From: Octopus vulgaris
Lineage: Eukaryota
DNA length: 64,000 bases
Assembly: GCA_951406725.2 (NCBI GenBank)
Contig: OX597817.1
Coordinates: forward strand, 133,176,001-133,240,000
Direction of reading: 5' to 3'
Shown: positions 33,192 to 56,705 of the stretch, piece by piece
Layout of the letters: each line of letters begins with the position of its first letter
Numbering within the stretch: the first letter of the stretch is position 1
The notes under the pieces: model-generated
Databases searched by the model: none
Told to the model about the DNA's origin: nothing
What the model saw: the letters and a program-made list of their open reading frames with translations, nothing else
Position numbers and translations under genes: made by a program

Positions 33192-33225
33192 GCGCAGGCG
33201 TGGCTATGTGGTGAGTAGCTTGCTT
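33192..33225 (+). mobile_element. SINE family A 5' head (box A), split from its body by an insertion
   Basis: gcgcaggcgtggctatgtggtgagtagcttgctt; continues at 35272. Confidence 0.85.
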
Positions 33226-35271
33226 TCCGCACATGCGCGTTGGTGTTGCTTATTACAGTGAACCGAGGCGGACGTGAGTGTGTTGGCTCCGTCTAATATT
33301 GAACTGAAAGAAAAAAGAACAACGACAGCATAAGCTCGTCGAGGTAGGTGGTTTTGTTTTCGTTTGAGCTGGGTGTAATTTGTCAAATAGTAGTTGTTTG
33401 TTTGTTGATAAATTTCACCCAGCTCCGAGGCAATTCAGCCTGCTGCCAGCGGCTGCTGTTTGTTGTTTTATTGGGAAAAAAGGGGGCGTATCCTCTCCCG
33501 AACTTACTGGATTTTGCCATTGAAACTTGTTGGATTACCATTGAACCTACGAAGTTGGCCAGGAGTACCGGTTGGCCATTGATATTTGCTGTGTGAACTG
33601 TTTTTCTTTTCTCTATCCTTCTGTGTTTTGCTTTCTTTTTGGAGCTGTTTTTGGGTTTCTTTTGAATTTTATTTTTATTCATTTTTTGAAGTGAATTGTT
33701 TATTTCTTTTTGGACTTGTTAATTTATTTGGACTTTTCTTCTTCTTTTGAATTGATTTTTAACATAGTAAATGCAAAAAATGCCATAGAATGGAAGGTGG
33801 TCCCACCTAAGCAATGGATTGAAAGCCTTGAGAGAAAGACGGTGGTACTACGGACCTATTGTAGGTCGCGTGACGCCATCGCCTTCTTCGATAAGGGTAT
33901 TATTAATAAAGAGCTGGCAAAATGTTTGCCAGCCAAAAATTATTACGTAACCAGGGGTGTCAAATACGCCACGGTGTGGCTGCTTTTCGACACTCCTGAG
34001 GAGGCTTGCACTGTGGCAGGCCAGCCCCTAGAAAGGGAGTAGGTTTTGTTTCTTCCCACATATCGTAGGAAGAAGGTGATAAGGGCCTGGGTATGTGGTT
34101 TTCCCCCGGGCATCGAAGCAGGGTGGATTGCAGATGCCATCCGACGGGGCCTGGGAGATAGCGGGCTCAAGCTTTTAGATATAGAGATAAAGCCTGCGGT
34201 CGACTGGGAGGGTGCAAAAGCAACTTTGACCCGATGGACTCCAGTGCCCGCGGGTGAAATGGCTTTCCCGGACTTTTTTTAAATGGATGGCTCAAGGTAT
34301 CCAGTGATACTTGAGGGTCGCCCCCCCCCAAGTGTCACTCGTGCCTGGGGTCAGGCCACATGAAGGAGGACTGCCCCCGGGGCCGTGGTAAGGTCCCGGG
34401 GCAGGGAAAGGTCCTCCGCTCTCCCATTGCAGGGAGAAACGGCGAAAGTCGTTGAGGCATCGGCCTCAACGAGAAGGAAAAGAAAGGTGAGCAACAATGG
34501 TTGCTCACCAACAGACGCGCAGGTTGTGAGAGAGGAGGAGGACCCCCCCCCCCCGGGTGTTCCGGTGGAGGCTCCGACTCCCGCACCCGTAAAAGGAAAA
34601 AGAGAAGGAAGAGAAACGAGAGATGGTCGACGGATATCACTGTGCCACTGACTGAACCCGATGCTCCTCCGATGGAAGGTGTGCAACAGGAGCGAGAGGC
34701 TCTGCCAGTGTGAATTGTGCCACTGACAGAGCGGGCTGAGACCCCCCCCCGTGAGGAGGACGTGAAACCCGTCGTTTTCTATCTCAGGGAAGGGCCTGTC
34801 GAGAAGTGCTTGGACGGTCTTCCAGGCCGAGAACGATTGGACTCGGTTTGTATAGACTGTCCAGACTGGCCTCCGCAGGTGGCTGCGGACGTCGTGAGTC
34901 AGAAGGAACTGTTCGAGGTCATGGTCACCTGCAATAAGGAAGATTTTGCTTTCCTCTTTCCGGGCCCCGACCTGCCGATGCAGGCTTTCCTGCAGGTGGT
35001 GCGTAATTTGCTTGGGGGCTCCGATGAGGATTGATCTTATAGATTGTGTGTATATTGAATAATTTATTATATATATTTGTAATGGACTATTAAGTCCAAT
35101 AATTGTCGTTTTTGATGAAAAAAAAGAAAAATGTTTTAGAGAAGCAGAAAATCGGCGGGCGTTTTCTGCCTTCTCTCGTCAATATCATCCTTGTTTCATC
35201 ATTCACCTCATCAATGTATATGTCCAGCCCGCAAGCTACTCTTTGTAATGCCTTTATGGCAAATCTTAATG
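33226..35271 (+). mobile_element. ORF1-only non-LTR-type element, copy 1, inserted in a SINE head
   Basis: ~530-bp 5' leader, disrupted gag-like ORF, short 3' UTR ending tgtccagcccgcaagcta...ttaatgaa; homologous along its length to 54345-56279; no RT or EN motifs seen. Confidence 0.8.
33760..35034 (+). pseudogene. Gag-like (Tx1/L1-type ORF1) zinc-knuckle protein, disrupted
   Basis: EWKVVPPKQW, KTVVLRTY, VKYATVWLLFD, RAWVCGFPPG, PAVDWEG, RYPVILEGRPP, CHSCLGSGHMKEDC (CX2CX4HX4C), C-terminal DWPPQVAADV; stops and homopolymer frameshifts. Confidence 0.8.
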
Positions 35272-35632
35272 AACCACATGGTTTCGGGTTCAATCCCACA
35301 GGGTGGCACCTTCGGCAAGTGTCTTCTGCTATAGCCACGGGCTGACCAAAGCCTTCTAAGTGGAGTTAGTAGACGGAAACTGAAAGAAGCCCGCCGCATA
35401 TATATATATATATATATATATATATATATATATATATATATATATATACATATACATATACATATACATATGTGTGTGTGTGCGTGCATGCGCGCGTGTG
35501 TGTTTATGTCCCCGTAACTTAGCGGTTCGGTAAAAAGAGAACGATAGAATAAGTACTAGGCTTGCAAAGAATAAATCCTGGGATCGATTTTTTCGACTAA
35601 AAGCGGTGCTCCAGCATGGCCACTGAAACAAG
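35272..35632 (+). mobile_element. SINE family A body (box B onward), continuation of 33192-33225
   Basis: aaccacatggtttcgggttcaatcccac...ccccgtaacttagcggttcgg...gcggtgctccagcatggcc. Confidence 0.85.
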
Positions 35633-54307: not shown

Positions 54308-54344
54308 GGCGCAGGATTGGTTGTGTGGTAAGTAGCTTGGTTAC
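54308..54344 (+). mobile_element. SINE family A 5' head, split from its body by an insertion
   Basis: ggcgcaggattggttgtgtggtaagtagcttggttac; continues at 56280. Confidence 0.88.
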
Positions 54345-56279
54345 TTCCGGTTAACCAGAATGCAACACTAGTTGGTCTGGACTGTTACAGTGAAAAGATG
54401 TGAGTTTCGGCTCCGTGACTAGAAAAAAAGAAAAATTGTCAATTATGGCTCGCTATAGCGAGCAAAATACTAGGTTCTCATCACCGTAACGGTGAATTGA
54501 GAATTTTTGCTTGAAAATTCTTTTTGTAAATTCTAGTGGGCGTATCTCGCCAGAAAAATAAGAATAAGCCATTTGGATTACCTTTTTGCAGTATTATACA
54601 AAGGATTCCCTGTCTGCTATTTGTGAGGTTTTTTTTTTACTTTTCCCTTCTATTTTTTTCTTTCTTTCTAAATTTTGGTTCATTCTTTTCATTAGTTTAA
54701 TTTCAGTTTCCTTCCCTCCTCTTTTATTTTGTTTTATTTTATTCGGTTTAATTTTTTGGCAGACTGTCTTTTGAACTACTTTTGAACTGCTTTTTGACAT
54801 GGCAGAGAAGGAACTTAAAAAGAAAAACTCTGTCTTAGAGTGGGAAATTAACCCGCCTAAGCAGTGGTTAAAAGATATGGAGAAGACGATGGTACTTAGA
54901 ACTTATTCCCAAGTTCTTAATTCCATCACCGTCTTCCCAAAACAAGTCATAAAAAATGAACTTAAAGAATATTTGTCCTCTTTAAAATCTATATCCCGTA
55001 GTGTCAAACATGCAACCGTATGGTTGCTGTTTGACAACGGAGAAAAGGCTCGCCAGTTTGCGAGTCAGCCTTTAGAAGGCAAGGACATTCTGTTCCTTCC
55101 GTCATATTGTGGAAGAAAATTAATACGAGCCTGGGTATGTGGGTTACCCCCAGGCACCGAAGCGGATTGGATTGAAGATACCATCCAACGGGGACTGGGG
55201 GATGGCGGGCCCAGGCTCTTAAATGTAAATGTATTGCCGGCGGTCGATTGGGAAGGGTCAAAAGCAATTTTTACCCTGTGGACACCATCGGCCACAACAC
55301 ATCTGGTTCTTCCAGATTTATTGAAAATGGCTGGCTGCAGGTATCCGGTGATACTTGAGGGACGTCCCCCCAAGTGTCACTCGTGCCTGCAGCCAGGCCA
55401 CATTAAAAGGAACTGCCCCCAGGACCACGGTAAGGTCCTGGAACAGTCACTAGATGCCATCTCCCTTACCCGGTCAAAGGGAGAGGTGGATGTGGTCGAG
55501 GAGGCTTCAGCCTCCGGACAAAGCGGAAGAGCTCCACTCTCCCGAAGTCAGGAAGAAAAGAAGAAAAGAAGGCAGAAGAACGGGTCGTCTCAGCGGGGAG
55601 ATGATGTGCCGTCTGCATGTCCCGAAGTTGTACCACTTACGATGGAAGAAACCACCCCACACTTAAAGATGATCAATTAATTATCTTTTTCTATAAGGGC
55701 GGGGAGGTGTAAAAATAGTAGAAGAACATAAAGAGACAGCAGATATGCCCTTCACACGGGATCCCTAATGGCCTCCGCAGATAGCTGTGGAGGTCATAAG
55801 GTTTCCCTTGTGGGAAAGGCTTACAGGATTTGGGGAGGAGTGTCGCATATGGCTGGGTGGCCCTTACACGACTTACATGTCCTACATGAGTGAGGCATGG
55901 GAAATGGCGGGATACAGGAACTCAAGCGACATTGAAGATAATGATGAATATATCGAAAAGTAGGAGGTGAAAGACCCTCGATATAGGGTTTGAAACCTCA
56001 TCTTATTGTATTATTTGTAGTGGTTTATAACCTCAATTGTGTGTTTAAAAAAAACATGTTAAGTAAGTGGTTTTAGAGCCTCTTTCTTGTAAGAGGTTTG
56101 AAACCTAATATTGAATTTTAAAAAAAGAAAATATGTTTTCGAGAAAAATCCAATCGGCGAGAGTTGGGTTTCGTCTCTCATTTATTCATTCTATTTCATT
56201 TTCATTCATTAATGTGTTTGTCCAGCCCGCAAAGCTACACATTCTTTGTACTGGCTATGATGACAAATTTTATGAAATA
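54345..56279 (+). mobile_element. ORF1-only non-LTR-type element, copy 2, inserted in a SINE head with 15-bp TSD
   Basis: TSD aagtagcttggttac (54330-54344) / aagtagtttggttac (56280-56294); ends gtccagcccgcaaagcta...tatgaaataaa; no RT or EN motifs seen. Confidence 0.85.
54799..55680 (+). CDS. Gag-like (Tx1/L1-type ORF1) protein with CCHC zinc knuckle, 293 aa; original C-terminus probably continued to ~55960 but is now disrupted
   Basis: ATG-initiated ORF; RYPVILEGRPPKCHSCLQPGHIKRNCP, basic patch EEKKKRRQK; collinear with 33760-35034; downstream remnant WPPQIAVEV at ~55769. Confidence 0.8.
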   Translation: MAEKELKKKNSVLEWEINPPKQWLKDMEKTMVLRTYSQVLNSITVFPKQVIKNELKEYLSSLKSISRSVKHATVWLLFDNGEKARQFASQPLEGKDILFLPSYCGRKLIRAWVCGLPPGTEADWIEDTIQRGLGDGGPRLLNVNVLPAVDWEGSKAIFTLWTPSATTHLVLPDLLKMAGCRYPVILEGRPPKCHSCLQPGHIKRNCPQDHGKVLEQSLDAISLTRSKGEVDVVEEASASGQSGRAPLSRSQEEKKKRRQKNGSSQRGDDVPSACPEVVPLTMEETTPHLKMIN

Positions 56280-56705
56280 AAGTAGTTTGGTTACCAACCA
56301 CATGGTTCCGGGTTCAATCCCATTGCGTGACACCTTGGGCAAGCGTCTTCTACTATAACCTCAGACCAACCAAAGCCTTGTGAGTGGATTTGGTAGACAG
56401 AAACTGGAAGAAGCCCGTCGTATATATGTATATGTGTATATATATATATATATATATATATATATATATATATAATGTGTGTGTGTATGTGTATGTGTGT
56501 GTGTATGTGTGTGTATATGTTTGTGTGTCTGTGTTTGTACCCCCACCGATGGTGGTGTGCTTACGTCCCCGTAACTTAGCGGTTCGGCAAAAGACACCGA
56601 TGGAATAAGTACTAGACTTACAAAGAATAAGTCCTGGGGTCAATTTGTTCGACTAAAGGCGGTGCTCCACCATGGCCGCAGTCAAATGACTGAAACAAGT
56701 AATAG
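56280..56705 (+). mobile_element. SINE family A body, continuation of 54308-54344
   Basis: ccaaccacatggttccgggttcaatccc...ggcggtgctccaccatggccgcagtcaaatgactgaaacaag. Confidence 0.88.

Follow-up and report, generated by a model that had tools for sequence, protein, structure and literature searches.

An old ORF1-only retroelement lineage at a single base in the tRNA-like head of a SINE in Octopus vulgaris, likely copied in trans by an L1/Tx1-group element at the same site

This study concerns two retroelements of about 2 kb in a 64,000-nucleotide stretch of the 2.8-Gb Octopus vulgaris genome (hereafter the window; C4:133176001-133240000, contig OX597817.1 of assembly GCA_951406725.2), each carrying open reading frame 1 (ORF1) as its only coding region and each splitting a short interspersed element (SINE) with a tRNA-like head. 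The features of the locus are given below in window coordinates; L and C numbers denote loci and contigs.

33192..33212, + strand: SINE head with the box A region, 5' of element 1; the same head is present in empty copies.
33213..33227, + strand: left 15-bp target copy of element 1 (siblings L097, L093, L099).
33228..35271, + strand: element 1, ORF1-only, of an older subfamily, with the right target copy lost (deletion of about 21 bp).
33770..35034, + strand: broken ORF1 of element 1, with stops at 34040 and 34280 and frameshifts after about 34320.
35222..35261, + strand: 3' motif GTCCAGCCCGCAA (35222-35234) and terminal 4-bp hairpin (35249-35261) of element 1.
35272..35640, + strand: remainder of the SINE split by element 1 (box B, body, internal microsatellite, tail).
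54307..54329, + strand: SINE head with the box A region, 5' of element 2.
54330..54344, + strand: left 15-bp target copy of element 2.
54345..56279, + strand: element 2, ORF1-only, 91-94% identical to its subfamily, with a 92-bp internal deletion.
54799..55680, + strand: ORF1 of element 2, 293 aa as frameshifted, with two predicted RNA recognition motifs (RRMs) at about residues 20-190 and a CCHC knuckle at 192-208.
55679..55951, + strand: C-terminal part of the same ORF1, out of frame after the deletion (tblastn with an intact relative, residues 322-414).
56220..56279, + strand: 3' motif (56220-56232) and terminal hairpin region (56252-56265, one mismatch) of element 2, with no poly(A) tract.
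56280..56294, + strand: right 15-bp target copy of element 2 (target-site duplication).
56295..56709, + strand: remainder of the SINE split by element 2 (box B, body, internal microsatellite, tail).

Both elements interrupt the SINE directly after GTGGT in box A, at the identical base and in the identical orientation. This border mapping bears out a sequence-only reading of the window, which had proposed two elements of about 2 kb in one SINE site in equal orientation, except that its start for element 1, at 33226, moves to 33228. The left and right target copies of element 2 differ by one mismatch over 15 bp; at element 1, the right copy is missing owing to the loss, relative to siblings, of about 21 bp that separate two GAA triplets. 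As that reading had also held, the outer flanks are unrelated, the DNA common to the two elements being confined to the 5' part of ORF1 (74%) and to the 3' end with the SINE tail, and neither element gave an endonuclease (EN), reverse transcriptase (RT) or other ORF2 match. Its description of a single gag-like CCHC ORF in each element was right about the CCHC knuckle, but the predicted fold is that of two RRMs and element 1 has no intact ORF. Likewise, the 293-aa ORF that it took as the protein is a frameshifted version of one of about 415 aa, the frame being shifted by the 92-bp deletion near 55510-55516 relative to siblings (intact relatives have about 415-420 aa). Two occupied sites less than 21 kb apart (window 33228-56279) compare with an expectation of about one per Mb from the genome counts, which may reflect a hot spot or chance.

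Genome-wide candidates were collected in three first-look searches, in each of which the best 150 were scored, out of 11,319 for the window ORF and out of 4,124 and 25,192 for the other two. A 17-nt motif of the 3' end had 671 exact matches in the genome, and a control motif had none. From these matches a position-ordered sample of 70 was read, consisting of the first 30 rows and 40 of the next 46 (five of the six skipped rows were loci already read, all on site, and the sixth was not part of the count). By script, 60 of the 70 copies end at the target AAG(T/A)AGCTTGCT(T/A)AC or its SINE tail, and four more show SINE remains by eye, giving 64/70 on site; the tabulation thus agrees with the proposal that insertion is not random. 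ORF2 was found upstream in none of the 70, with 1.5 kb inspected in the first 30 and 2.8 kb in the other 40, in line with the earlier claim that copies lack it. Unit length was 1.9-2.3 kb in 18 of 24 measured units, the shorter ones being 5'-truncated, and the element-1 and element-2 subfamilies use the site as the whole family does. The window's 14 SINE-tail matches give a density near one SINE per 5 kb, at which an insertion would hit one exact base in one orientation by chance in roughly 1 of 10,000 cases. The two ~2.1-kb window elements are therefore confirmed as members of a genome-wide octopus ORF1-only lineage of retroelements that lack long terminal repeats (non-LTR retroelements), and the system is real, large and recently active. 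On contigs C31 and C39, one ORF1-only insertion occurs in several near-identical copies with its flanks (L121-L124), which may stem from segmental duplication or from redundancy in the assembly.

Compared with 25 distinct tRNAs that cover six isotypes, the SINE head aligned best to tRNA-Lys(TTT)-type genes (z 3.2-4.7), with boxes A and B assigned by eye. The target sequence was absent from all of these sampled tRNA genes, ARAGORN found no tRNA in the window, and Rfam gave no tRNA match on the two window SINE copies, only microsatellite noise. Of the two targets proposed in the sequence-only reading, the SINE head is the one observed; none of the junctions inspected lay in a genuine tRNA gene, with six tRNA isotypes sampled. 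There are at least 78,978 exact empty sites and at least 1,086 exact occupied 3' junctions in the genome, counted with different patterns and each a lower bound, implying an occupancy on the order of 1%. Insertion favours the AAGTAGC target subtype (70/73 occupied versus 20/34 empty), a preference that is weaker in an unbiased sample; this subtype makes up 76 of the first 100 exact empty sites. Among octopus SINEs, OR1 is named in the accessible part of PMC4824008, which cites Ohshima and Okada 1994 for OR1, OR2 and OK.

The putative helper is a 5.45-kb element that was first met within arrays beside ORF1 matches. It encodes an ORF1 of 466 aa and an ORF2 of 1,133 aa, in which Exo_endo_phos, RVT_1 and zf-RVT all score above Pfam cut-offs, and its closest match in the PDB is human L1 ORF2p (1e-66, versus 1e-19 for R2). 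Judged by these predicted domains (APE endonuclease, RT and C-terminal zinc-binding domain), it is an L1/Tx1-group element, for which membership of the Tx1 clade would fit; the homologue searches returned no named Tx1 reference, and the homologues found were unnamed or hypothetical. All of the 30 top ORF2 loci end at the SINE target (28 by script, L167 by eye, and L188 followed by an ORF1-only unit), target-site duplications were seen at helper loci, and both frames are open in L196, L197 and L200, while internally deleted copies also exist (L209). The loci with the best zf-RVT matches were rejected as helper, since these 40 belong to other L1/Tx1-type families, none at the SINE site. A second ORF1-only lineage, of about 1.5 kb, occupies the same SINE site (L134:2222-2857 on the - strand, L133 and L147); its ORF1 is about 27% identical to the window protein and its 3' end is helper-like. 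When 30 position-ordered occupied junctions were classified by unit type, 18 belonged to the ORF1-only lineage of the window (15 by ORF1 and three by 3' motif) and seven carried ORF2 with 67-99% identity to the young helper, indicating that helpers of several ages exist; the remainder were one helper-type tail alone, one copy of the second ORF1-only lineage and three of no assigned type. The sequence-only reading had suggested looking for an EN- and RT-encoding element sharing both target and 3' motif. The target is indeed the same, but the common DNA at the 3' end is limited to the last ~36 nt, with the form TCT(T/G/A)TGT..TG(C/T)C-N5-G(G/A)CAAAT..AAATA; in one ORF1-only subfamily, the first ~20-30 nt are also common to helper and passengers.

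The insertions at this site are independent and went into SINE copies older than themselves. Mean pairwise divergence was 2.6% for the element 3' end versus 10.3% for the adjacent SINE tail at young loci (25/25 loci), 6.2 versus 12.1% at element-2-type loci (23/29) and 0.7 versus 6.9% at helper loci (29/30), and the two distances were uncorrelated (Spearman -0.07 to 0.15). Because element divergence is 2.6-6% and that of the SINE tails 10-12%, the SINE does not carry the elements along. Copies truncated at the 5' end use the identical base (L129, L277 and L297). Different subfamilies also form mixed head-to-tail arrays with a target copy between units, ranging from two units in L031 to at least eight at C10:101.17-101.19 Mb, and at C1:223.69-223.71 Mb seven junctions are spaced 2 kb apart. 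Helper and ORF1-only units share arrays (L137 with L141, L138 with L142, L155, L156, L188, L203 and L208). Array growth may occur either by repeated insertion or by template jumping.

For ORF1, Pfam returned zf-CCHC only, and the CCHC knuckle is invariant in 23 ORF1 sequences. An AlphaFold model of the ORF1 core, with the 23 aligned cores as input, reached a predicted local distance difference test score (pLDDT) of 79.6. With this model, Foldseek found tandem-RRM proteins (best E 7e-5), and VIA found single RRMs at both halves (best Z 9.2, root-mean-square deviation 3.2, 83 aligned, La RRM). The type I ORF1p scheme, as set out in the accessible part of PMC5203782, comprises at least one RRM and a CCHC knuckle; the ORF1-only protein is of this type, with two RRMs according to the model and the knuckle. 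A tree built with 22 representatives unites the ten ORF1-only sequences, two of which (L127 and L131) are partly frameshifted, in a 100/100 clade that lies about 2.1 changes per site away from every autonomous ORF1, that of the helper included. The ratio of nonsynonymous to synonymous substitution rates (dN/dS) was 0.12-0.28 in 12 cross-subfamily pairs with dS >0.85, rough values because dS is near saturation, and 0.32-0.33 in two closer pairs; within the element-2 subfamily it was 0.40-0.64, as expected for dead copies of selected masters. At the level of sequence, these ratios demonstrate purifying selection on the ORF1-only protein. With an ORF1 about 25% identical to that of the helper, its own clade and dN/dS of 0.12-0.28, the lineage must be old and not a fresh helper deletion. 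The closest named homologue is an Octopus sinensis 'uncharacterized protein' (64% identity), and further relatives occur in Octopus and Argonauta. Public gene sets of octopus list such ORF1 proteins among the host genes (P0001 and P0195, as 'uncharacterized protein' and 'EPM2A-interacting 1-like').

On the 3' side, the junction is constant and lacks a poly(A) tract. At the 5' side, 41 young full-length single-unit loci were compared: the right target copy deviates at positions 10-15 in ten of them, and in these ten the left copy is the element's own GCTAAC in eight and equals the right copy in none, the other two being duplicates of one insertion. In another 5' type, all of 12 copies carry their own variant at positions 10-15. 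Variants at positions 4-8 are found on both sides in L033, L130, L207 and L297 (not in L194 or L121/L122), and since such rare variants are shared by both sides, these four loci are true duplications of different targets. In 5'-truncated copies the duplication spans 9-15 bp, and L277 and L297 show rare variants in both the left and the right copy.

Based on this evidence, we consider it quite probable that an old ORF1-only lineage of about 2.1 kb, residing at a single base in the tRNA-like head of a SINE, is copied in trans by the 5.45-kb L1/Tx1-group EN/RT element at the same site. The ORF1-only element would be transcribed by RNA polymerase II (Pol II) from its own leader, and its ORF1p, with two predicted RRMs and the CCHC knuckle, would coat its own RNA. 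The terminal TG(C/T)C-N5-G(G/A)CA hairpin and the AAATA end may then recruit the ORF2p of the helper, whose EN would nick at GTGGT/AAG on the bottom strand and as far as 15 nt downstream on the top strand, followed by target-primed reverse transcription. As the first ~6 nt of the RNA mimic target positions 10-15, the cDNA end could anneal to the overhang, and this annealing would restore the full site, on which more units of any subfamily could stack into arrays. Lying between box A and box B, an insertion would disable the RNA polymerase III (Pol III) promoter of that SINE copy and spare genes.

Several observations weigh against this account or limit it. Six of the 70 position-ordered copies lie off site. 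The ORF1 proteins of passenger and helper are only 22-26% identical and stand on separate branches, so that common descent from the present helper is unsupported, and the dN/dS ratios are approximate for the reason given. The motif GTCCAGCCCGCAA is absent from the helper. In 59 of 60 cells the 4-bp terminal stem pairs, and one change is compensatory, which is modest evidence because the 3' ends were gathered with a hairpin-shaped pattern; the stem has four pairs only, three of which never vary, and the compensatory change may be one event. Since similar hairpins end L1/Tx1 families with other targets, the hairpin alone does not choose the partner. The 5' junction model describes only a tendency: L194 and L241 depart from the simple split, and the older copies, which include window element 2, are mixed, with left and right copies that can agree at position 11. 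Mobilisation in trans by the helper is likely, on evidence from sequence comparison rather than experiment. Of the proposal that an ORF1-only family borrows ORF2 in trans, the ORF1-only structure, the fixed site and the presence of an EN- and RT-encoding element there have stood, whereas a deletion of the present helper is not what the family is.

That last origin, in which the elements are unrelated internal deletions, or dead copies, of the present autonomous element, is barely credible: internally deleted helper copies do occur, as in L209, but DNA similarity between helper and passengers is limited to the ends, the ORF1 clade has 100/100 support on a branch of about 2.1 changes per site, unit size is uniform at 1.9-2.3 kb and dN/dS is well below 1 between subfamilies. 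The ORF1 distance refutes it. A more serious competitor, unlikely nonetheless, is that another autonomous element with the passengers' own ORF1 lineage, missed or extinct, mobilises them, and that the 5.45-kb element merely shares the target. The identity of only ~25% between the phylogenetically separate ORF1 proteins would fit such an element, as would the restriction of scoring to the best 150 candidates of each search. However, no unit combining the passenger ORF1 lineage with ORF2 was seen at any locus tested, near-identical young ORF1-only copies require a recent enzyme, all seven ORF2-bearing units among the 30 occupied junctions match the helper lineage, and the terminal 36 nt and a 5' start are common to both.

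Targeting could also be achieved by tethering to Pol III factors bound to the SINE instead of by sequence recognition by the endonuclease. Pol III-linked tethering at tRNA genes is known from Dictyostelium TRE and yeast Ty3, the site lies inside the box A-box B promoter, and the SINE head is nearest to tRNA-Lys(TTT) among the tRNAs compared. This explanation is nevertheless improbable, given that the junctions are base-precise and follow sequence, array insertions lie kilobases from box B, AAGT/AAGA-like sequence comes after several of the off-site copies, the AAGTAGC subtype is preferred (70/73 versus 20/34) and the target is absent from all sampled tRNA genes. As for a single insertion followed by amplification or duplication of the SINE-plus-insert composite, L121-L124 do duplicate one insertion on repetitive contigs and many young copies sit in one SINE subtype, yet divergence is 2-10 times higher in the SINE tails than in the elements and the two are uncorrelated, rare variants occur on both sides in L033, L130, L207 and L297, and many subfamilies, truncated copies, arrays and the second ORF1-only lineage share the same base. 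For the family as a whole, composite amplification is refuted by the SINE-tail divergence and the varied units on one base, and we regard it as highly improbable.

HeT-A of Drosophila and TRE5-A.2 of Dictyostelium are ORF1-only, targeted non-LTR elements that rely on an RT-encoding relative; HeT-A targets telomere ends and forms mixed head-to-tail arrays, and TRE5-A.2 sits upstream of tRNA genes by protein tethering. Unlike the octopus lineage, they are not known to have a 15-bp sequence target inside a SINE. The mammalian HAL1s, in turn, are long dead so far as is known. The octopus passenger operates in the manner of HAL1, with a Tx1-like helper, without belonging to the mammalian HAL1 group. 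So far as the accessible part of PMC5753468 describes HAL1 elements, they are ORF1-only L1 derivatives of repeated origin. The two systems are alike in being non-autonomous, with ORF1p only and no EN or RT (0/70 passengers with ORF2), in having arisen more than once (here in the second, ~1.5-kb lineage), and in amplifying as a family in their own right with ORF1 kept functional (here 671 motif matches and dN/dS of 0.12-0.28). They differ in that the passenger is found in a mollusc, has a predicted type I ORF1p in place of the mammalian coiled-coil/RRM/CTD type, has a fixed 15-bp SINE target and no poly(A) tract, and has an ORF1 only ~25% identical to that of its likely helper.

According to the accessible part of PMC4494074, Tx1-clade targets include Tx1D for Tx1, Mariner-N4_AMi for Tx1-Mar, Harbinger for Tx1-9_AMi, U2 for Keno and microsatellites for Kibi and Koshi. 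The helper resembles these elements in its APE-type EN and RT, a preferred target sequence in another multicopy element, duplications of ~15 bp and tandem insertions sandwiching a target copy. The internal promoter region of a tRNA-like SINE is not among the targets listed in that part of the paper, and the octopus system differs further in its protein-coding passenger under selection and its specificity to one base. The same source describes crocodilian SINEU-3 and Tx1-Mar, for which the helper was inferred from the common target and hitch-hiking was excluded by truncated copies. Both cases pair a non-autonomous element with a helper through a common target; however, SINEU is short, non-coding and derived from small nuclear RNA, whereas the passenger here is 2 kb long, codes for protein and has a 3' terminus in common with the helper. 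For Octopus vulgaris, Bonar et al. 2026 (PMC13282606) reported 80 L1-Tx1 consensus families, 13 of them recently active with 421 insertions, and in its accessible part that annotation mentions no target specificity, ORF1-only structure or nesting; the elements described here may well be among these families. Neither a sequence-specific element with ORF1 only nor a SINE head serving as the target of a long interspersed element (LINE) was described in the literature searched, with Repbase, Dfam and the Zenodo library of Bonar et al., where these families may be catalogued, outside its scope. Targeting of other repeats by Tx1 and ORF1-only HAL1 are each known, and the combination was found unreported in the literature searched.

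Other retroelements were seen alongside this system. One L1/Tx1-type family, which is young and has an open ORF2 frame of 1,140 aa (L071-L077 and L079, e.g. C2:73.04-73.07 Mb), ends at one fixed sequence in another repeat, which at a guess is a Penelope-type tail, and forms 5.4-kb tandem arrays. Another such family (L080, L081 and L084) has a fixed site in a different repeat, and L081 carries, directly upstream, an ORF1 related to the second ORF1-only lineage, on account of which ORF1-only passengers may exist for other targets. At 46098-46620, the window contains a 5'-truncated L1/Tx1-type ORF2 C-terminus in an (ATT)n/(ACT)n microsatellite, resembling Kibi/Koshi-type targeting, and the L082 family also ends in (ATT)n. 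A further L1/Tx1-type family has no fixed target, and the 5' end of another such element often comes directly after it (L051-L067 and L086-L088); at L061/L133 this family heads an array of SINE-targeting units. Elsewhere in the window, a 650-aa open RT frame of another LINE lies at 21323-23275 on the - strand (RVT_1, 6e-35), which we take from its motifs to be RTE-like, and frames at 18436-18936 and 30725-31567, both on the + strand, resemble by eye pieces of Penelope-type RT and GIY-YIG, with no Pfam match at 0.001.

As to its wider meaning, the system may represent a three-tier parasitism, a reading that we offer tentatively and as a whole hold with somewhat less than even confidence. An intact L1/Tx1-group integrase would recognise 15 bp within the Pol III promoter of a SINE that is among the genome's most abundant, and at least two ancient ORF1-only lineages would hijack it, each keeping a selected RNA-binding protein 75% different from that of the helper; the 5' target mimic would rebuild the landing pad at each insertion and so lead to mixed arrays of at least eight units. 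If this is true, ORF1p would be a cis-acting adaptor with which passenger RNA competes for a foreign ORF2p. HAL1-type elements pose the question of why ORF1 is kept while ORF2 is borrowed. As one genome here holds passengers that are young and intact, a helper with intact copies and a target of one base, the cis role of ORF1p and the trans role of the 3' hairpin are directly testable. In octopus gene sets this ORF1 goes under the label 'uncharacterized protein', and the genome carries several L1/Tx1 families with different repeat targets. The SINE promoter joins the known safe-haven targets of sequence-specific LINEs, and, should the three-tier reading hold, the octopus would possess a natural, base-precise system of RNA-templated insertion with interchangeable cargo.

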